Source: Escherichia coli (lineage in GTDB: Bacteria; Pseudomonadota; Gammaproteobacteria; Enterobacterales; Enterobacteriaceae). From it: a DNA stretch of 64,000 nt. The stretch lies in the NCBI RefSeq assembly GCF_002854065.1, contig NZ_CP024147.1; one strand, written 5' to 3'. Both the position numbers and the translations under genes were made by a program. Below the pieces are notes generated by a model. It saw only the letters and a list, made by a program, of their open reading frames with translations. It did not search any database and was not told where the DNA came from. Numbering within the stretch: the stretch's first letter is position 1; the number at the start of each line of letters is the position of its first letter. Positions 4,964 through 37,386 of this stretch are shown piece by piece.

Positions 4964-6091
<1,128 letters not shown>

Positions 6092-8103: not shown

Positions 8104-10344
8104 TCAGAAGTGAGTGTTTACGCTCATATACCACGTACGTCCCGGCTCGTTATAGGTATACGCCCCGGCACCGGCGATATAGTTGGCCCCTGCCAAATCG
8201 CCCGTGGTCTGGGCATTACCCGCACGCCACAAACGTTTGTCGAACAGATTGTCCACGCCGCCGGTCAGACTGACATTCTTCGTCACATCCCACGTCGCGC
8301 TCAGCCCAACAATGCTGTAAGGACTAATTTCTTTGGTTTCCGGTCCAACCGCTGGCTGACCTTTATAGTTGTACTTCTTCGGCTGCTGCTTACCGTACCA
8401 GGTGAAGGTCGTTTGCATCGACAAATCTTCTCGTGCCTGCCAGCTCAGCGTTGAGTTCAACGTATACTCCGGGATGATCGACAAACGGTCGCCCGTGGTT
8501 TTGTTTTCACTCTTCAGCATATAAGTGATGTTATTAGTCCACATCACCGTTTCGCTAACCGGTACGTTTAACGATCCTTCCAGACCTTCAACCACCGCTT
8601 TCGGCACGTTATCCCACTGATAGAGATCGGTGCCGACTGCGTTTTGCCCTACAGCAACATAGCCTGCTTCAATCTTATTGCGATAATCGTTGCGGAACCA
8701 GGTCACACCCGCCAGCCAACCGTCGCGTTTGAACTCCAGACCAATCTCCTTGTTGATGCTGGTTTCTGCTTTCAGGTCATCGTTACCTTGCAGATAGCAG
8801 CCGCCCGCGCTGGCATAGCAGCCCTGGCCTTTACTATAGAGGATATAGTTAGGGTTAGTCTGGTACAGGCTCGGCGCTTTATAAGCACGGGCAATGCCCA
8901 TTTTGAGCGTGAAGTCATCGCCTAAACCTTGCGATATGTTCAGCGCCGGGCTCCAGTTATTGCCGACAATACTGTGATGATCGAAACGCAGCCCCGGCGT
9001 TACGATGGTGCTGTCAGTCAGCTCCATGTTGTTTTCGGCAAACAGCGAGAAAATTTCTGCTTTTGAATACGGGCTACGGTCGGTGGCACTCACGCCATCA
9101 ATAGCGCCACCGGTATTCGTTCCGGTCAGTGCCTGGGTGTTGGAACTTAAGTCCTTCATCCGTTGCTGATTCCACTCCGTACCCAGCGTCAGCGTTTGGT
9201 TAACGAGGAAATCAATCGGCAGGTTAACTTCGCTGTGCAGCATCACGTCATCAAGATCGATATCGACGAAATCCTGTGTCGCTTTTTCGTTAAATTTCCC
9301 TTCGGTGCCACCCGCCAGACCTTCCGGAATACGCGAGTTACGGGTGTGTTCATACTGCACCCAGTTGCTGGTGGTCACGCCGTTATCCCAGCCGCCGTTC
9401 CAGGTCAGCGAGTAGTTCTGGCGATACAGGCGGTTGGTTTCATCGCCATATTTCGAGCGAGTATAGGAGTCAGAGTTGGTGTTCTGGGTATCGCCCGCAT
9501 ACAGGTTACCCTGGCGGCTGTAGCCCGCTTCCAGTTCCAGCGATTGCAATGGTGCGAAGTCCCAGCGCACCACGCCGTTAATATCTTTATTGATCACCCC
9601 TTCGCGCCCGGCTGGTAACGTCGTGGCATACGTTCCGGCACGCGCGGACTGATGGCCCTGGTTGATATCCCACGCGTCAGCCTGAGTTTTGTCGAGGTTG
9701 CCATACAAGCGGAAGCTGAATTCGTCGCCCAGCGGACCGGTCAGGCTAAAGTTAGTGCGTTTGGTGGCACCTTCCTCTTTATGTTCTGGCGCATTGAAAT
9801 ATGCGTCCCAGGAGCCGTGCCACTCGCCGCTGCCTTTTTTGGTAATGATGTTAACCACGCCGCCCGCCGCGCCGTTGCCATAACGCGCAGCTGCCGGACC
9901 ACGCAGAACTTCAATACGTTCAATCATTTCAGGTGGCACCCAGGAGGTATCACCACGGGTATCGCGCTCGCCACGCCAGCCCTGGCGCACCGAGTTACGG
10001 CTGCTTACCGGCTTGCCGTCAATCAAAATCAGCGTGTTTTCCGGACCCATACCGCGAATATCAATCTGTCGGTTATTCCCTCGCTGACCACTGGTGGAGT
10101 TACCGGTCAGGTTAACGCCTGGCATGGTACGGATGATCTCCGACACATCGCGGGCAACGGGGTTTTTGCGGATTTCATCTGCGGTGATGGTCGAAACGCC
10201 AGGCGCCTGTAAGTTCTGCTCGGCGGCGGTAACGACAATGGTATCGTCATGTGAAACAGGAGTATCGGTCGGCTCTTGTGCCTGCGCTACCCCATAAATC
10301 CCCAGATTGACCAACAAGGCCATGGAATGAATCTTCTTGTTCAT
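8104..10344 (-). CDS. fepA: TonB-dependent ferric enterobactin outer-membrane receptor FepA
   Basis: Track ORF 8104..10404; recalled FepA (746 aa) starts MNKKIH with signal peptide ...GVAQA; C-terminal beta-barrel ending in F. Confidence 0.95.
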   Translation of the reverse strand: MNKKIHSMALLVNLGIYGVAQAQEPTDTPVSHDDTIVVTAAEQNLQAPGVSTITADEIRKNPVARDVSEIIRTMPGVNLTGNSTSGQRGNNRQIDIRGMGPENTLILIDGKPVSSRNSVRQGWRGERDTRGDTSWVPPEMIERIEVLRGPAAARYGNGAAGGVVNIITKKGSGEWHGSWDAYFNAPEHKEEGATKRTNFSLTGPLGDEFSFRLYGNLDKTQADAWDINQGHQSARAGTYATTLPAGREGVINKDINGVVRWDFAPLQSLELEAGYSRQGNLYAGDTQNTNSDSYTRSKYGDETNRLYRQNYSLTWNGGWDNGVTTSNWVQYEHTRNSRIPEGLAGGTEGKFNEKATQDFVDIDLDDVMLHSEVNLPIDFLVNQTLTLGTEWNQQRMKDLSSNTQALTGTNTGGAIDGVSATDRSPYSKAEIFSLFAENNMELTDSTIVTPGLRFDHHSIVGNNWSPALNISQGLGDDFTLKMGIARAYKAPSLYQTNPNYILYSKGQGCYASAGGCYLQGNDDLKAETSINKEIGLEFKRDGWLAGVTWFRNDYRNKIEAGYVAVGQNAVGTDLYQWDNVPKAVVEGLEGSLNVPVSETVMWTNNITYMLKSENKTTGDRLSIIPEYTLNSTLSWQAREDLSMQTTFTWYGKQQPKKYNYKGQPAVGPETKEISPYSIVGLSATWDVTKNVSLTGGVDNLFDKRLWRAGNAQTTGDLAGANYIAGAGAYTYNEPGRTWYMSVNTHF

Positions 10345-10512
10345 TGTTTTATTCCTGCATTTTTGCCACGAATTGCAACTGTCGGGCATGGTCGTCCTCA
10401 ACACGACGCATCCCGCTACCGCGAAAACCTTTGATCCTGAAAGACACGCAGTGCAGTTGGTTAATTAATGTCCGCGCTTCCCACGGCGCGCCATTACGCT
10501 ATTGCAAATGCA

Positions 10513-10539
10513 AATAGTTATCAATAATATTATCAATAT
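10513..10539 (+). promoter_or_regulatory. Fur box in the divergent fepA / fes promoter region
   Basis: aatagttatcaataatattatcaatat resembles the Fur consensus GATAATGATAATCATTATC; this region is a known iron-regulated bidirectional promoter. Confidence 0.65.
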
Positions 10540-10586
10540 ATTTCTGCAATCAATGAAAAATTGCACAGTAAACATGGGGTTATGGT

Positions 10587-11789
10587 GTGACGGCGTTAAA
10601 AGTAGGAAGTGAGAGCTGGTGGCAGTCGAAACATGGCCCGGAATGGCAGCGTCTGAATGACGAAATGTTTGAGGTCACTTTCTGGTGGCGTGATCCCCAA
10701 GGTTCTGAAGAATACTCGACGATAAAGCGCGTATGGGTCTACATCACTGGCGTGACTGATCACCATCAGAACAGCCAGCCCCAGTCGATGCAGCGAATTG
10801 CAGGTACTGATGTCTGGCAGTGGACGACACAACTCAATGCCAACTGGCGCGGCAGCTACTGCTTTATTCCCACCGAACGCGATGACATTTTTTCTGCACC
10901 ATCCCCCGATCGCCTCGAATTACGTGAAGGCTGGCGAAAACTATTACCCCAGGCAATAGCCGATCCGCTGAATCCACAAAGCTGGAAAGGCGGGCGAGGG
11001 CACGCTGTTTCTGCACTCGAAATGCCGCAAGCGCCTCTGCAACCGGGATGGGATTGTCCGCAAGCGCCAGAAATACCAGCCAAAGAAATTATCTGGAAAA
11101 GTGAACGGTTGAAAAATTCACGTCGTGTATGGATTTTTACCACCGGCGATGTAACAGCAGAAGAACGCCCGCTGGCAGTTTTGCTCGATGGCGAATTTTG
11201 GGCGCAAAGTATGCCCGTCTGGCCTGTGCTGACTTCGCTGACCCATCGTCAGCAACTTCCTCCCGCCGTGTATGTGTTGATCGACGCTATCGATACCACG
11301 CACCGCGCCCACGAACTGCCGTGTAATGCGGATTTCTGGCTCGCAGTACAGCAAGAGTTATTACCCCTGGTGAAAGCTATTGCCCCTTTTAGCGATCGTG
11401 CCGATCGCACCGTGGTTGCCGGGCAGAGTTTTGGTGGGCTTTCCGCGCTGTATGCCGGACTGCACTGGCCTGAACGCTTTGGCTGTGTATTAAGCCAGTC
11501 AGGATCGTACTGGTGGCCGCATCGGGGCGGGCAGCAAGAGGGCGTGTTACTTGAAAAGCTAAAAGCTGGTGAAGTTAGCGCCGAAGGTCTGCGCATTGTG
11601 CTGGAAGCGGGTATTCGCGAGCCGATGATCATGCGGGCCAATCAGGCGCTGTATACGCAATTACACCCTATAAAAGAATCCATTTTCTGGCGTCAGGTTG
11701 ACGGCGGACATGATGCGCTTTGTTGGCGCGGTGGCTTGATGCAGGGGCTAATCGACCTCTGGCAACCACTTTTCCATGACAGGAGTTGA
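10587..11789 (+). CDS. fes: Enterochelin (ferric enterobactin) esterase Fes
   Basis: 400-aa ORF MTALKVGSESWWQSKHGPEWQRL..., GTG start as given by the track; matches recalled Fes. Confidence 0.9.
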   Translation: MTALKVGSESWWQSKHGPEWQRLNDEMFEVTFWWRDPQGSEEYSTIKRVWVYITGVTDHHQNSQPQSMQRIAGTDVWQWTTQLNANWRGSYCFIPTERDDIFSAPSPDRLELREGWRKLLPQAIADPLNPQSWKGGRGHAVSALEMPQAPLQPGWDCPQAPEIPAKEIIWKSERLKNSRRVWIFTTGDVTAEERPLAVLLDGEFWAQSMPVWPVLTSLTHRQQLPPAVYVLIDAIDTTHRAHELPCNADFWLAVQQELLPLVKAIAPFSDRADRTVVAGQSFGGLSALYAGLHWPERFGCVLSQSGSYWWPHRGGQQEGVLLEKLKAGEVSAEGLRIVLEAGIREPMIMRANQALYTQLHPIKESIFWRQVDGGHDALCWRGGLMQGLIDLWQPLFHDRS

Positions 11790-32409: not shown

Positions 32410-33039
32410 CTATTTAACCGTCCAGGCGCGGGAATATTGACGGTCGGCAAACAACTCTTGCAGGCCGTTAATTTGCTTCAGGCGCAGCACTTCGTCGCTG
32501 TCCATTCCCAGCTCTTTGCCAATTTTATTATCGTCCCATCCCAACTGGCTAAGTTCACGGACGATTTCCGACATGGCGGTGATTTGATGGCGTCCACGAG
32601 CGCGATTATGACGAATAGTCGCGGCGATGCGTTGATTACGCGTACCTTCCAGACAGGTCACCGGCAAATAACCTTTTAAGCGTAATTGTAATGATGATGA
32701 GCCTTTACCAATTTCATGGCGGTGAAAACCATCCACGATTTCCAGAGCATTTTTATCCGTATGCGTGACCACAATGGGTTGGGTAAAACCATCTATTTCA
32801 ATGGATTTTTGCAGCAGTTTCTTCTCTGGCGGTGCCACATTATTGGGATTGTAATCATTTGGCACGAGCTGGCTATTTTTCACCCACAGAACGCAATCCA
32901 CTGGCTCTTCACGAAAGGGGCTAACCTGATGGATCGCCATGCGGATTTCATTAATCGCTTTGATGCGATCATCTTCCGGCAAGCTGGCGAGAAATTGCGT
33001 TAAATCCTGCGTTAATCGTTGTTGCATAGTATCCCCCAT
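32410..33039 (-). CDS. ybdM: ParB-like nuclease-domain protein YbdM
   Basis: 209-aa ORF matching recalled YbdM; 28-nt overlap with upstream ybdN. Confidence 0.8.
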   Translation of the reverse strand: MGDTMQQRLTQDLTQFLASLPEDDRIKAINEIRMAIHQVSPFREEPVDCVLWVKNSQLVPNDYNPNNVAPPEKKLLQKSIEIDGFTQPIVVTHTDKNALEIVDGFHRHEIGKGSSSLQLRLKGYLPVTCLEGTRNQRIAATIRHNRARGRHQITAMSEIVRELSQLGWDDNKIGKELGMDSDEVLRLKQINGLQELFADRQYSRAWTVK

Positions 33040-34232
33040 TCCTGACGTTTTCCTTTTATCCGTTCGTTATAACGCTGATAGTTCTTCGCTTTCGTAGGAC
33101 TAAATGATAATGCCCGACACCAGTAATCGTTATTGAGTAAAACTTTGCATATCCGCCGCCAGGAGGGGATATCTTTCGCGCCAATGTCCCCTTGCTGGGT
33201 TTGTGGAACCTCGATGCCTTTTTTCTGATACCAGTGCAAATAAATGGCGATTTTATTGCGGTAATGCTCAGCTGTTTTTTCCGGCATGCTATTGAGCAGC
33301 AATAATGCATATTCTTGCCAGTCTAAATGTTCTGGCTTGAGGATTTTCCGATGCCCATAGAAATGATTGTCATGTCCGGCGTAAATGCCGCCACTTTTTA
33401 CCCCGCTGACTCGTGCGCACATAGCAGCCCAGCGATCCGGTTCGATAACGTGATAGAGCCATAATCCTTGTCGTTGCTCCGGGCCAAAAGGTTCGCAAAT
33501 TCGCATATGACGCAGAGGAACGCCTGCCTGATACATCAGGTTATACAGTGGGTTGCAGAGACTTTGATGATTTGCATACCAGGTCCAGATATCAGCCACT
33601 TTCCAGTCGTAAATGGGATAAATGTACCAGCTATGACCGCCTGGTGCGGCCGTAGTCCAGGGTTTATCGTCGGCAAAACGTTGTTTATTTAAACTGGCGA
33701 TGGCGACAAAACGGTTGTAGGACTCATCCGCACGGATGCCGATCATCATCGCCGCCGGACGTTTTTGTGAAAACCATTCGGCAAACTCACGTACAAATTG
33801 TTCGAAGGTCATGCCTGGCTGGTAAAAGGAGAAAAAGTCAGGATCGGTTATCGCATCTTGCGGGGGCTGACGCACCCATTCGACATCAGGTTCCCAGCAC
33901 TGCCATTCGGGTTGGTATTGTGAAAGGGAATTTTGCGTCGTAAGCGGGAGCGCAACCCAGTAAAACTCTTCGATGACATCGGTGTACAACTCGTGCAGGG
34001 ACTGAACATAATTAATGGTGCAAGAGAATTGCGCCTCCCAGTCGATAAACAAAACGCAGATTTTTTTGCCCATTTGTCGGGCAAGTTCGGCTGTCAGATG
34101 CAGCATTAAACCAGAGTCTTTGCCGCCAGAAAATGAGACACAAACGCGGGGTAGGGTGTTGAGTGTCCAGGTAATACGCTCTCGTGCAGCTTCCAGAATA
34201 TTGAGCGGAAGAGGAATTTTATAAATAGACAT
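33012..34232 (-). CDS. ybdN: PAPS-reductase-like (adenine nucleotide alpha-hydrolase) protein YbdN
   Basis: 406-aa ORF with an N-terminal SFSGGKDS PP-loop motif; matches recalled YbdN. Confidence 0.8.
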   Translation of the reverse strand: MSIYKIPLPLNILEAARERITWTLNTLPRVCVSFSGGKDSGLMLHLTAELARQMGKKICVLFIDWEAQFSCTINYVQSLHELYTDVIEEFYWVALPLTTQNSLSQYQPEWQCWEPDVEWVRQPPQDAITDPDFFSFYQPGMTFEQFVREFAEWFSQKRPAAMMIGIRADESYNRFVAIASLNKQRFADDKPWTTAAPGGHSWYIYPIYDWKVADIWTWYANHQSLCNPLYNLMYQAGVPLRHMRICEPFGPEQRQGLWLYHVIEPDRWAAMCARVSGVKSGGIYAGHDNHFYGHRKILKPEHLDWQEYALLLLNSMPEKTAEHYRNKIAIYLHWYQKKGIEVPQTQQGDIGAKDIPSWRRICKVLLNNDYWCRALSFSPTKAKNYQRYNERIKGKRQEWGILCNND

Positions 34233-34774
34233 CTGAAGACGCTCTCTGAACGTTACAGGGTGATCAGTGAGATAAGACTGTTAATTATAAAGTAAACACT
34301 GAAAAGCAGAGTGTTTTATTTTTCATTCGCGCTGTGAATAAATAGGTGAAAGTTATAGTAGCTGTCTGAGGTTATATATCAAAAACACTCATTTAGACGG
34401 TCAATGAATCGTGAGAACACCAGATTGTTTAAAGAAGATTTATTATAGGAAATGTAAAGCTTTATTGAAGGTAACGGATGTTCTAGTTTTATCTCTTTTA
34501 AATTAAGAAAGTCACGGTGGGAGTTATAAAGTTCATAGGGGACTATTCCCAGTAAATCTGTAACTGCAATGCTATTAATGATTGTCAGCAAAGAGGAACC
34601 ACGAAATGAAATTTTGCGATTCATAAATCTCTCGTCTATTTCCATTTGAATATCATCAACCCCTGCTGATTTAGATATTAATTGGGTGAACTCTTCTGCC
34701 ATAATTTGTTCATAAGTGCGGTGATGCTGCCAACTTACTGATTTAGTGTATGATGGTGTTTTTGAGGTGCTCCA

Positions 34775-35050
34775 GTGGCTTCTGTTTCTATCAGCTGTCC
34801 CTCCTGTTCAGCTACTGACGGGGTGGTGCGTAACGGCAAAAGCACTGCCGGACATCAGCGCTATCTCTGCTCTCACTGCCGTAAAACATGGCAACTGCAG
34901 TTCACTTACACCGCTTCTCAACCCGGTACGCACCAGAAAATCATTGATATGGCCATGAATGGCGTTGGATGCCGGGCAACCGCCCGCATTATGGGCGTTG
35001 GCCTCAACACGATTTTCCGCCATTTAAAAAACTCAGGCCGCAGTCGGTAA
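34775..35050 (+). CDS. insA: IS1 InsA
   Basis: 91-aa [27 protein letters not shown]... (zinc-finger/HTH protein of IS1). Confidence 0.95.
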
Positions 35051-35472
35051 CCTCGCGCATACAGCCGGGCAGTGACGTCATCGTCTGCGCGGAAATGGAC
35101 GAACAGTGGGGATACGTCGGGGCTAAATCGCGCCAGCGCTGGCTGTTTTACGCGTATGACAGGCTCCGGAAGACGGTTGTTGCGCACGTATTCGGTGAAC
35201 GCACTATGGCGACGCTGGGGCGTCTTATGAGCCTGCTGTCACCCTTTGACGTGGTGATATGGATGACGGATGGCTGGCCGCTGTATGAATCCCGCCTGAA
35301 GGGAAAGCTGCACGTAATCAGCAAGCGATATACGCAGCGAATTGAGCGGCATAACCTGAATCTGAGGCAGCACCTGGCACGGCTGGGACGGAAGTCGCTG
35401 TCGTTCTCAAAATCGGTGGAGCTGCATGACAAAGTCATCGGGCATTATCTGAACATAAAACACTATCAATAA
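34969..35472 (+). CDS. insB: IS1 InsB reading frame (transposase made as InsAB' by -1 frameshift at the aaaaaac motif near 35027..35033)
   Basis: 167-aa ORF ...[21 protein letters not shown]...; the slippery a6c motif lies within the insA/insB overlap. Confidence 0.9.
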
Positions 35473-36268
35473 GTTGGAGTCATTACCCATAAGTGCTATT
35501 GTCAGTAATTCGTGGATGCCTATTACTACAAATTAGAGTATTGCGAATCGTATGCAATGGCATGCAAATGACGGAACGGCTGATCACTGGCATTTGGGTG
35601 ATCACCAGATCGGCTTTGCGGTGAACCAACAGTTCTTCAGCATTCTCTGCTGACATGAGGATATCATGGCACTCAATCTCGACAGAGGAATCTTGTCGTA
35701 GGCAGCGGATCAGCATACTATTATTAGAGCAAGAAATGAGCTGAGGGCCGTGAATAATAAAGTTTTTCTTTAGTTCGGACTTATTGACTATATTAATTGT
35801 TTGTTCAAGGCCTCTGAGATTTTTCTCAAGATGGTGATGCAGATTTAACCCTGTTGTCGTCGGCGCGATACCTTTTCCTGAGCGAATGAATAAAGGGTCA
35901 TTAAATTGCGCACGTAAGCGTTGTAACGACTGGCTCACGGCTGATGGGGTGATATATAGTGATTCAGCAGCTTTGCTAATGCTTAAATGCTGGTAAATAC
36001 ACTCAAATATGACAAGAAGATTTAAGTCGAACTTTTTCAAGTCGTAGAGATTGGTCATACACTACTCCGGTTATATTTTTCTTCCATGATATATTCACTT
36101 AATCAATGTTTTTTTTGCGTATATATTTTTATTGGTTATGTTTTTTTGCTTAACTCAGGATTAAGTTTTTCTAAAATAGCACAGCCACTTAGGGCAGAGC
36201 GAGCAATTCATGCTTTTTTAGGATGGTTGAAAAGCAGGGATATAGTTCAACCATCCATGAATTACCTT

Positions 36269-37015: not shown

Positions 37016-37199
37016 TAATTTGTCCTTTTCAGTCAGTGCAAAAGTCGAGTAAAAGGCATAACCTATCATTGTCATAGGTAAGAGCTTAGATCAGGTGATT
37101 GCCCTTTGTTTATGAGGGTGTTGTAATCCATGTCGTTGTTGCATTTGTAAGGGCAACACCTCAGCCTGCAGGCAGGCGCTGAAGATACCAAAGGGTAGT

Positions 37200-37386
37200 T
37201 CAGATTACACGGTCACCTGGAAAGGGGGCCATTTTACTTTTTATCGCCGCTGGCGGTGCAAAGTTCACAAAGTTGTCTTACGAAAGTTGTAAGGTAAAAC
37301 TTATCGATTTGATAATGGAAACGCATTAGCCGAATCGGTAAAAATTGGTTACCTTACATCTCATCGAAAACACGGAGGAAGTATAG
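37200..37386 (+). promoter_or_regulatory. ahpC promoter region (expected OxyR-regulated; exact site not resolved)
   Basis: ahpCF is known to be OxyR-activated; I could not pinpoint the operator by eye. Confidence 0.3.

Follow-up and report, generated by a model that had tools for sequence, protein, structure and literature searches.

What do two overlapping genes, one encoding a PP-loop enzyme and the other a ParB-like protein, accomplish together in Escherichia coli? The ybdN–ybdM pair, already known in E. coli and uncharacterized, raises this question. We addressed it by analyzing the pair within a 64,000-nucleotide stretch of E. coli DNA (the window), together with its relatives in other genomes, phages and plasmids.

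An overlapping gene pair of the IbrA–IbrB family

Both genes lie on the minus strand, where ybdN (33012–34232) encodes a predicted IbrA-type PP-loop ATP pyrophosphatase of 406 residues and ybdM (32410–33039) encodes a predicted IbrB-type protein, ParB/sulfiredoxin (Srx) plus helix-turn-helix (HTH), of 209 residues as annotated. The gene names proposed in a sequence-only reading of the window agree with the RefSeq annotation, which calls YbdM an ‘IbrB-like domain-containing protein’. The 28-nt overlap noted in that reading is likewise present in the list of open reading frames (33012–33039, minus strand), with the qualification that it shortens to 16 nt if ybdM begins at a conserved ATG at 33027, yielding a product of 205 residues. 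An ATG or GTG is kept at this position in all Enterobacteriaceae ybdM orthologues examined, and Citrobacter YbdM homologues are annotated as 205-residue proteins beginning at the equivalent codon. The first ybdM ATG falls within conserved E-W-G codons of ybdN. It matches the position at which ibrB is annotated to start in phage PhiR5_2 and in a Klebsiella plasmid, in both of which ibrA and ibrB overlap by 16 nt. Whichever ybdM start is used, the two genes overlap; in other loci, the spacing between IbrA and IbrB genes is usually an overlap of a few bases or a gap within ~20 bp.

Kinship to IbrA and IbrB, which the earlier reading had named, holds at the protein level: YbdN is 56.6% identical to IbrA of phage PhiR5_2 over 99% of its length, and YbdM is 61% identical to IbrB of the same phage. 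The features of the family are all present, namely PAPS_reduct plus DUF3440 domains in one protein, a ParB/Srx domain plus HTH with the family motifs in the other, and adjacent, co-oriented genes. Domain architecture, gene order and gene overlap are the same as in ibrA and ibrB of phages and of the IbrAB island of E. coli ECOR-9. The ECOR-9 island reportedly activates prophage eib genes, as the title of the 2002 study by Sandt, Hopper & Hill states. By contrast with IbrAB, which resides on a prophage-like island, ybdNM occupies a fixed chromosomal site, is core in E. coli and is controlled by the adjacent LysR-type regulator CitR.

Of 5426 complete E. coli genomes, 5420 carry the pair, and comparison with divergent Escherichia gives dN/dS values of 0.041 for ybdN and 0.034 for ybdM, demonstrating strong purifying selection. 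This core status, together with the low dN/dS, shows that ybdN and ybdM are not chance open reading frames. The ybdL–ybdNM–citR arrangement is constant in many Enterobacteriaceae genera. Genomes were scanned with a 13-sequence alignment. Across 159 loci from genomes and viral contigs, IbrA and IbrB genes are almost always adjacent, and these loci supply ~140 natural IbrA–IbrB pairs. The count of IbrB-like genes, which drew on an HMM search of all open reading frames at genome loci, places one beside IbrA at 61 of the 65 loci from non-enterobacterial genomes, at all 14 syntenic loci from enterobacteria and on 78 of the 80 viral contigs. Phage records with relatives number 224 and plasmid records 855, the latter including Klebsiella plasmids with the salmochelin (iro) locus. 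We best explain ybdN–ybdM as an enterobacterial copy, inherited vertically, of a two-gene IbrA–IbrB module whose other copies are mostly carried by phages, plasmids or islands.

YbdN and the case against sulfur chemistry

The PP-loop SFSGGKDS can be read directly at YbdN residues 33–40 (34113–34136, minus strand). It lies at the start of a PAPS-reductase-like α/β domain (residues 30–234; 33531–34145, minus strand), which is followed by a helical C-terminal DUF3440 domain (residues ~237–400; 33033–33524, minus strand). Pfam searches match these regions to PAPS_reduct (PF01507, E = 7.8e-15) and DUF3440 (PF11922, E = 3e-32), bearing out the motif and fold named in the sequence-only reading, and YbdN as a whole matches PHROG 2302 (E = 2.9e-76). 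Among 77 diverse homologues, S35, G36, G37, K38, D39 and S40 are each at least 90% conserved. Within DUF3440, R274, W268, W305 and D369 are nearly invariant in the homologue alignment and the structure model is confidently helical; no solved structure aligns to the model of this domain, and searching the PDB by sequence recovered no solved structure related to either YbdN or YbdM. Taken together, sequence and model place the predicted YbdN fold in the PAPS-reductase/CysD/FAD-synthase branch, with an intact SGGKDS loop. Enzymes of this branch cleave ATP to AMP and pyrophosphate and pass the AMP to a phosphate-like or sulfate-like oxyanion. YbdN departs from CysD (the small subunit of ATP sulfurylase) and eukaryotic FAD synthase (FMN adenylyltransferase) in having neither a CysN-type GTPase partner nor FMN-binding features, in carrying both a W-rich insert (residues ~108–121) and DUF3440, and in its obligate pairing with a predicted DNA-binding ParB/Srx protein. 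Long IbrA homologues contain PAPS_reduct and DUF3440 domains only, bar one partial ABC_tran match at the N-terminus of homologue P0355 (E = 9.8e-7, just above the Pfam cut-off).

Does this fold make YbdN a genuine PAPS reductase, as its RefSeq product name has it? Almost certainly not. CysH models score well below their cut-offs (TIGR02057, 34.6 against 254.2 bits; NF002537, 33.3 against 154; TIGR00434, 24.7 against 165.1), YbdN lacks the catalytic cysteine motif found in the C-terminal tail of PAPS/APS reductases, and the intact SGGKDS loop points to CysD-type cleavage between the α and β phosphates of ATP. Moreover, E. coli already has a separate cysH elsewhere in its genome. The RefSeq label is therefore probably wrong.

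More broadly, no cysteine is invariant across the 74–77 aligned IbrA homologues. The best column is 85% cysteine but contains alanine in both YbdN and phage IbrA, no other column exceeds 51%, and C246 of YbdN is conserved in only 46% of homologues. YbdN and PhiR5_2 IbrA are alike in having alanine at position 94 and cysteines at positions 31, 71, 112, 246, 272, 362 and 372. Across the family, C112 and C246 co-vary (Fisher p = 0.003), and thiol chemistry is thus conceivable in the YbdN subfamily.

These observations also bear on the resemblance to DNA sulfur-modification enzymes (DndC-like) suggested in the earlier reading, and on the possibility that YbdN–YbdM carries out DNA phosphorothioation like DndC, SspD or BrxP. 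One part of the analogy stands: YbdN shares the PP-loop fold with DndC, and these systems, like YbdN–YbdM, combine an enzyme of this fold with a ParB-superfamily partner in one operon (DndC/SspD/BrxP with DndB or SspE), DndB also belonging to the ParB superfamily (PMC10853773). Their target is DNA, as we propose for YbdN–YbdM, and PADLOC returned hits that are weak and partial, for DndC at E = 1.9e-5 and for BrxP at E = 2.9e-4. The rest of the analogy fails. YbdN scores 22.4 bits on TIGR03183, for which the cut-off is 290.4, and has a different C-terminal domain, DUF3440. The family has no conserved Fe–S or cysteine set; both the three-cysteine Fe–S ligands and the cysteine dyad are absent, the best cysteine column being alanine in YbdN. 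No DndA-, DndD- or DndE-like match occurs among the window’s open reading frames around the pair, and clustering of open reading frames at 79 genome loci revealed no recurrent DndA/DndD/DndE-like, cysteine desulfurase, SspB/C or BREX family; viral loci were searched for five named families only. Unlike DndC and SspD systems, YbdN–YbdM is thus accompanied, across the loci covered, by neither a cysteine desulfurase nor DndD/E or SspC, and we regard phosphorothioation by this pair as highly improbable. With no family-wide cysteine, and with scores so much lower than the thresholds for CysH and DndC, both the PAPS-reductase label and the DndC analogy are weak.

YbdM, partner genes and models of function

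YbdM is predicted to consist of a ParB/sulfiredoxin-fold domain (residues ~46–150; 32590–32904, minus strand) and a C-terminal HTH (residues ~153–196; 32452–32583, minus strand). The Pfam ParB_N score is 24.4 bits, slightly below the 26.3-bit cut-off; the fold and a match to PHROG 2159 (E = 6.6e-69) nevertheless confirm the ParB-like domain proposed from sequence. An alignment of 50 IbrB-type sequences (A3) reveals residues that are invariant across phyla (N61, N64, P65, N66, E72, D103, G104, R107, I142–G149 and H151) and an HTH that does not vary within the family. All three family motifs, NxYNPN, DG(F/Y)HR and TIRHNRARGxH, occur in YbdM, the second as DGFHR (32719–32733, minus strand) within the ParB/Srx domain and the third as TIRHNRARGRH (32587–32619, minus strand) at its end. 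The G-C-H-R motif with the catalytic cysteine of sulfiredoxin is absent. We conclude that in YbdM an HTH follows a ParB/sulfiredoxin-fold, predicted nucleotide-binding domain that has a set of invariant polar motifs of its own.

How far does YbdM resemble the ParB-family CTP switches ParB/Spo0J, Noc, KorB, VirB and PadC? As in these proteins, an N-terminal ParB/Srx fold precedes an HTH, the A3 profile aligns to the N-domains of Noc and ParB, and the three positions of the nucleotide-binding boxes hold conserved residues in YbdM. The residues themselves differ, with DGFHR at the position of GERR and TIRHNRARGxH in place of ENLQR (IRHNR being the aligned segment), and scores on ParB-family models are low (TIGR00180, 14.9 against 58.45 bits; Noc, 20.9 against 315). 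Unlike ParB clamps, YbdM has no C-terminal dimerization domain, its chain ending ~13 residues past the HTH, and neither ParA nor parS accompanies it; of the window’s open reading frames, none next to the pair is ParA-like. This comparison is relevant to a purely regulatory role, in which YbdM/IbrB would be a KorB-like or VirB-like NTP switch that activates or de-silences genes, YbdN/IbrA would make, load or remove its nucleotide ligand, and DNA would stay unmodified. We consider such a role rather unlikely. First, two features that ParB clamps require, the arginine patch GERR and a C-terminal dimerization domain, are missing from IbrB. Second, the linkage and constraint of IbrA are as tight as those of IbrB. 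Third, a plain regulator poorly explains the accessory genes described below. Finally, the pair is also found in Moineauvirus phages of Streptococcus thermophilus, a group that we take to be virulent.

Four accessory families recur beside IbrA–IbrB: an SNF2 helicase, a GNAT-like protein, a cupin and an unnamed ~140-residue ‘X’ domain that has no match in Pfam or PHROG. An SNF2/Helicase_C gene lies immediately upstream of IbrA in 15 loci and overlaps the IbrA start in several of them. In mycobacteriophage Gaia, an ectoine-synthase-like cupin is fused to IbrB, which is the only informative domain fusion; viral contig L163 has a similar cupin–IbrB fusion, as judged by sequence resemblance only. 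An HU gene is directly upstream of the pair in four Clostridia loci, and in Streptococcus phage CHPC1148 and in Gaia the pair lies within early or replication regions. The pair stands alone, with neither helicase nor GNAT, in E. coli, in Salmonella and on the classical ibrAB islands, which counts against the DNA-directed model set out below.

Could the two proteins instead act on small molecules? YbdM might be a phosphotransferase akin to SbnI or the archaeal free serine kinase, and YbdN an adenylyltransferase, the two together making or consuming a metabolite or signal that is linked to a nucleotide and perhaps related to sulfur; in another version, the pair might be a nucleotide-modifying effector in defense or anti-defense. 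SbnI, a small-molecule kinase of the ParB/Srx fold, doubles as a DNA-binding regulator. YbdM, however, has no detectable sequence similarity to SbnI or the free serine kinase, has a different partner enzyme and lies outside any siderophore or cysteine-biosynthesis context. The invariant HTH and the SNF2 helicase gene that is often translationally coupled to IbrA also speak against a small-molecule function, and the cysteine-pathway (cys) and flagellar changes of a ybdO mutant have no demonstrated dependence on ybdNM. With respect to defense, PADLOC returned no convincing or significant defense-family match for the pair, and the E. coli locus lies outside any defense island. Both versions strike us as distinctly unlikely. 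Modification of RNA or tRNA, by analogy to TilS, TtuA/NcsA or ThiI and with YbdM as an RNA-binding or substrate-binding partner, is less probable still: these enzymes score below the CysH/CysD/FAD-synthase group, YbdN has neither a THUMP domain nor the C-terminal RNA-binding domains of TilS, the protein with which it is paired combines ParB and HTH domains of the DNA type, and the accessory helicase is of the SNF2 type.

We tentatively favor a model in which YbdN–YbdM serves as a DNA-directed module for adenylyl transfer or modification, as domain content and gene neighborhoods suggest. The two proteins would be co-produced and act as a complex. YbdM would bind DNA via its HTH, bind or turn over an NTP in its ParB/Srx pocket, and position YbdN, which could then adenylate a target on or at the DNA, such as a phosphate of the backbone or at a terminus, a base, or a factor bound to the DNA. 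The chemistry would probably not be based on cysteine or sulfur, as it is in DndC or CysH. The resulting covalent mark or remodeled nucleoprotein could alter expression of silenced, horizontally acquired genes, which would parallel the published effect of IbrAB on prophage eib genes. In E. coli, the operon is normally kept off by CitR. Phage versions accompanied by an SNF2 helicase, GNAT-like protein, cupin or ‘X’ domain could act early in infection, modifying the DNA of the phage or of its host.

A bolder and rather unlikely extension of this DNA-directed model is that IbrA–IbrB forms the core of an undescribed, sulfur-free class of ATP-dependent nucleic-acid modification. As one reading of how such a class might work, the ParB/Srx–HTH protein would target DNA and the PP-loop enzyme would adenylate a backbone phosphate or base, allowing another nucleophile to be attached. 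In phages, the SNF2 helicase, a GNAT-like acyl or aminoacyl transferase, the ectoine-synthase-like cupin and ‘X’ could build a more elaborate mark, and ybdNM might be a domesticated epigenetic switch silenced by CitR, with H-NS acting on citR.

Control by CitR and implications

The neighbors of the pair in the window are ybdL, citR and dsbG. Upstream of ybdN, an AT-rich intergenic region (34233–34378, minus strand; GC 0.34–0.39) is a candidate ybdN promoter; a promoter and terminator scan performed at chance level, its one σ70-like match (34382→34355) not rising above chance. CitR, also called YbdO, represses ybdNM and gives a ChIP-exo peak upstream of citR–ybdNM, citR itself is under H-NS regulation, and EcoCyc, as cited in the same study, predicts FNR control of the ybdN promoter (PMC9068703). 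In the window, citR (ybdO; 34379–36058, minus strand), which encodes this LysR-type regulator, is split into separate open reading frames by an IS1 element whose ends, as read from sequence, lie at 34720 and 35487 and which is flanked by a 9-bp target duplication, CATAAGTGC (34711–34719 and 35488–35496). With citR broken by IS1, ybdNM is probably derepressed in this strain. E. coli strains that have or lack citR and ybdNM are already available, and natural citR::IS1 strains of this kind may provide ready-made derepressed backgrounds.

The literature that we searched agrees with the earlier statement that ybdNM has no settled function, the functional data found there comprising only CitR repression, a higher level of YbdM protein when a CTX-M-15 plasmid is carried (PMC8764527) and a single hit in a peptide-resistance screen (PMC12147183). 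The pair is thus among the few uncharacterized operons found in essentially all E. coli. Annotation pipelines give its enzyme the probably incorrect label ‘PAPS reductase’, and at least one phage study treats a gene with a PAPS-reductase domain as a sulfur auxiliary metabolic gene (PMC10434257). If YbdN–YbdM and its relatives do modify DNA or reprogram silenced genes, then they would add a new layer to phage–host and plasmid–host interactions, and the ParB/Srx and PP-loop superfamilies would gain a new chemistry.

The ybdN–ybdM pair and its family

In the window, ybdN (33012–34232, minus strand, 406 aa) and ybdM (32410–33039, minus strand, 209 aa) lie among the neighbors that define the E. coli ybd region (cstA, ybdD, ybdH, ybdL, citR/ybdO, dsbG and ahpC). 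The sequence-only reading described the pair accurately overall; both ORF lengths, a 28-nt overlap and the SFSGGKDS motif (YbdN residues 33–40) are all seen in the ORF listing and sequence. A 1971-bp stretch here matches two E. coli chromosomes at 100% identity, most others falling in a 95–99% band; the strain is therefore E. coli and, with just two exact matches, probably not K-12. The extent of the overlap depends on the ybdM start, for which sequence comparison offers two candidates. The annotated ATG at 33039, within conserved Glu-Trp-Gly codons of ybdN, would give 28 nt on the minus strand, and an ATG at 33027 would give 16 nt. The latter position is ATG or GTG in all Enterobacteriaceae orthologues examined, Citrobacter homologues are annotated as 205-aa proteins from the equivalent start, and ibrA and ibrB overlap by 16 nt in phage PhiR5_2 and in a Klebsiella plasmid. 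Whichever start applies, translational coupling is plausible. At its other end, ybdM converges with ybdL, whose stop codon (32409) abuts that of ybdM (32410) with no terminator-like structure seen between them, and a published RNA-seq survey classes ybdL–ybdM as a convergent overlapping-transcript ‘excludon’ (PMC12288877). Between dsbG and ahpC, the window also holds an Rfam match to the enterobacterial sRNA STnc70 (37149–37242, plus strand; 44.1 bits versus a gathering score of 40).

The proposed kinship with IbrA/IbrB was borne out: YbdN is 56.6% identical to IbrA, and YbdM 61% identical to IbrB, of Escherichia phage PhiR5_2, making the pair a full member of this family. Across 79 loci from one-genome-per-species contigs and 80 viral contigs, IbrA has a ParB-type IbrB gene as its neighbor in every one of the 14 syntenic enterobacterial loci, in 78 of the viral contigs and in 61 of the remaining 65 genome loci, the exceptions there being in part truncated contigs. 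The pairing is thus near-absolute across phyla and viruses. IbrA precedes IbrB in the genome loci checked, except for one (L036) with an IbrB-like ORF upstream; many environmental viral contigs have the reverse order. Phage records with an IbrA relative number 224 (Flavobacterium, Mycobacterium, Streptococcus and others) and plasmid records 855, of which 323 are from Klebsiella. The Klebsiella pneumoniae IncFIB plasmid pC16KP0098-2 (L002) carries a bare ibrA/ibrB pair (8989–10850; 59% identity to YbdN) between IS remnants and immediately upstream of salmochelin iroBCDN, and the Klebsiella plasmids among the matches listed likewise carry one at this ~59% identity. Phages CHPC1148 and Gaia have the pair amid early or replication genes.

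Of 5426 complete E. coli genomes, 5420 carry ybdNM. The pair keeps its site in Citrobacter, Enterobacter, Kluyvera, Phytobacter, Pseudocitrobacter and other genera, where it likewise adjoins ybdL and a LysR-family gene. Compared with a divergent Escherichia, ybdN has a dN/dS of 0.041 and ybdM one of 0.034; in comparisons with other genera, dS is saturated, with dN at 0.10–0.30. AT content is higher here than on either side (GC 0.45–0.50 in the genes, 0.34 upstream), which fits an old horizontal acquisition.

The PP-loop and ParB/Srx partners

YbdN matches Pfam PAPS_reduct (residues 30–234, E 7.8e-15) and DUF3440 (E 3e-32), and an AlphaFold model built from 77 diverse homologues is confident (pLDDT 92.8, pTM 0.90); no PDB structure aligns with its C-terminal helical half. 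Residues that are invariant or at least 90% conserved across the family include the PP-loop (S35–S40), D64, E66, G165/R167/E170/S171/R174, D209/W210/D214/W216 and N227/Y230, together with W110, W113, W119 and R121 of a Trp-rich insert and W268, R274, W305 and D369 of DUF3440. YbdN has its PP-loop intact and belongs to the branch of such enzymes that moves AMP to phosphate- or sulfate-type oxyanions. No invariant cysteine occurs among the aligned family members; the best column is 85% Cys, with Ala in YbdN and in phage and plasmid IbrA. This pattern argues against both the RefSeq name ‘PAPS reductase’ and the DndC-like analogy of the sequence-only reading, as do the scores: YbdN reaches just 18–35 bits with CysH, CysD and DndC family models whose cut-offs are 154–414. 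Apart from the PP-loop motif shared with DndC/SspD/BrxP, the defining features tested for CysH and for DndC/SspD/BrxP were absent here. It is scarcely credible that YbdN is a true PAPS reductase, and phosphorothioation by the pair is highly improbable. Family-wide co-variation of C246 (46%) with C112 (34%) (Fisher p = 0.003) leaves room for a subfamily-specific thiol pair.

YbdM matches the PHROG ‘ParB-like’ family 2159 (E 6.6e-69) and scores slightly under the Pfam ParB_N threshold. Its model (pLDDT 89.3) comprises two N-terminal helices, absent in most homologues outside the enterobacterial type and a few others such as L062, followed by a ParB/Srx α/β domain and a terminal three-helix HTH. 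Fifty homologues from Proteobacteria, Bacteroidota, Clostridia and other groups are 42–70% identical to YbdM, exceeding the 27–50% for diverse IbrA representatives. Invariant among them are N61, N64-P65-N66, E72, D103-G104, R107, I142-R143-H144-N145-R146-A147-R148-G149, H151, G178-M179, E183, R186 and Q189. In a profile alignment with Noc and ParB, DGFHR of YbdM occupies the GERR position of ParB; unlike this aligned motif, IRHNR is assigned to the ENLQR position from its place in the predicted secondary structure. With these substitutions, the putative nucleotide pocket is kept yet rebuilt. In contrast to true ParB, YbdM has no C-terminal dimerization domain, and, beyond the shared fold and HTH, the tested hallmarks of ParB partition proteins/CTPases and of sulfiredoxins were not found in it. 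A rival account, possible but rather doubtful, would make YbdM a regulator like KorB or VirB and YbdN its accessory enzyme.

Accessory genes and a proposed mechanism

Recurrent extra genes are packed tightly against the IbrA/IbrB core. A SNF2/Helicase_C protein of ~415 aa is encoded directly upstream of IbrA in 15 loci, for example in Streptococcus phage CHPC1148, overlapping the IbrA start in several; in a jackhmmer census, 14 genome loci and 14 viral loci contained SNF2-type ORFs. Another 29 genome loci and 9 viral loci, some possibly overlapping with these, encode a GNAT-like protein of ~130 aa. The profile of this protein matches the PDB acetyltransferase 2eui (5e-4), and one member matches Pfam Acetyltransf_10 (9e-5, slightly under the model's gathering score). 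In mycobacteriophage Gaia, gp104 (L004:6290–7189) has an ectoine-synthase-like cupin (Pfam Ectoine_synth, E 1.3e-32) fused N-terminally to IbrB, and a 299-aa IbrB of a viral contig (L163:557–1456) bears an N-terminal extension resembling gp104 by eye only. A ~140-aa domain, ‘X’, with motifs KWEC, SCEHYL and NRIAWLGQA and no match in Pfam or PHROG, accompanies IbrB and IbrA as a separate or fused ORF in 51 of the 80 viral contigs (L086–L165; for example, L123:5564–5989 and L125:4844–5974); across all loci it is fused to the IbrB C-terminus in 26 ORFs. This catalogue points to nucleic acid as the target of IbrA/IbrB. RNA modification, a rival reading, is improbable.

In four Clostridia (L037, L038, L039 and L041), an HU-type nucleoid protein gene, at about 5420–5820 in each locus, lies directly upstream of an IbrA/GNAT-like/IbrB cluster. 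A preprint on PANGU defense describes candidate clusters in which a nucleoid protein accompanies a PAPS reductase and, optionally, a ParB-domain protein (10.64898/2026.04.06.716658), and the clostridial loci are probably its clusters 8 and 9, ‘NAP + PAPS reductase (+ ParBc)’. Another rival reading, which we consider unlikely, takes the pair for small-molecule or nucleotide enzymes, possibly a defense or anti-defense effector.

As judged from sequence, a PP-loop enzyme is obligately paired with a DNA-type ParB/Srx and HTH protein, the predicted pocket residues are invariant, and helicase, GNAT and cupin proteins often accompany the two. We tentatively propose, at somewhat less than even confidence, that YbdN and YbdM form a complex on DNA, in which YbdM would provide targeting and use an NTP and YbdN would adenylate something at the DNA. 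The outcome would be a DNA mark or an altered nucleoprotein state that changes gene expression. Such a change would explain how IbrAB, which reportedly turns on silent prophage eib genes, does so. The pair may function somewhat like DndC–DndB or ParB-type systems.

Disruption of citR and published phenotypes

In this strain, citR/ybdO (34379–36058) is split by a complete 768-bp IS1 (34720–35487) flanked by a 9-bp target duplication, CATAAGTGC. Because CitR is the published repressor of ybdNM, these genes are probably derepressed here, unless the element exerts polarity on transcription reading through from the citR promoter. A 241-bp probe across this junction is matched over at least 80% of its length by 198 of 5426 complete E. 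coli genomes. Two inspected genomes (L084 and L085) carry IS1 in citR at sites that differ from each other and from that in the window; their C-terminal citR fragments are 357 and 369 nt, versus 341 nt here, and thus at least three sites have been used. Either this AT-rich gene is a hot spot for IS1, or loss of CitR has been selected recurrently. Strain BKQ37E additionally has truncated copies of ybdM and ybdL.

CitR/YbdO binds upstream of citR–ybdNM, and ybdO deletion raises ybdN by 5.5 log2 and ybdM by 2.5 log2; H-NS regulates citR, and EcoCyc-predicted FNR control of the ybdN promoter is cited (PMC9068703). The same deletion raises the cys regulon (cysDNC, cysJI and cysAUW) by 2–2.8 log2 and flagellar genes by 4–5 log2 (PMC9068703, Table 1); if these increases depend on ybdNM, they would be a clue to a sulfur or nucleotide link. 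YbdM protein increases 29-fold with plasmid pUUH239.2 carrying blaCTX-M-15, and its over-expression costs 10% in growth rate (PMC8764527). Ten mutants, the Keio ybdM deletion among them, resisted the lacritin peptide N-104 (PMC12147183). Of eight UTI strains, six expressed in urine a second, island-borne ‘YbdM’ of CFT073 (c2484) (PMC2978726). Literature searches found no paper on the biochemistry of ybdN–ybdM.

The pair is already known, being annotated and named, with a published regulator and homologues of published phenotype. Our analysis adds arguments against reading YbdN as a ‘PAPS reductase’ or as DndC-like, the near-absolute linkage of IbrA and IbrB over phyla and viruses, an accessory-gene catalogue pointing to a nucleic acid target, and the finding that IS1 has broken the repressor gene citR here and, independently, in other strains. 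Its existence will not itself surprise specialists; ybdN–ybdM is an unusually widespread and tractable unknown.
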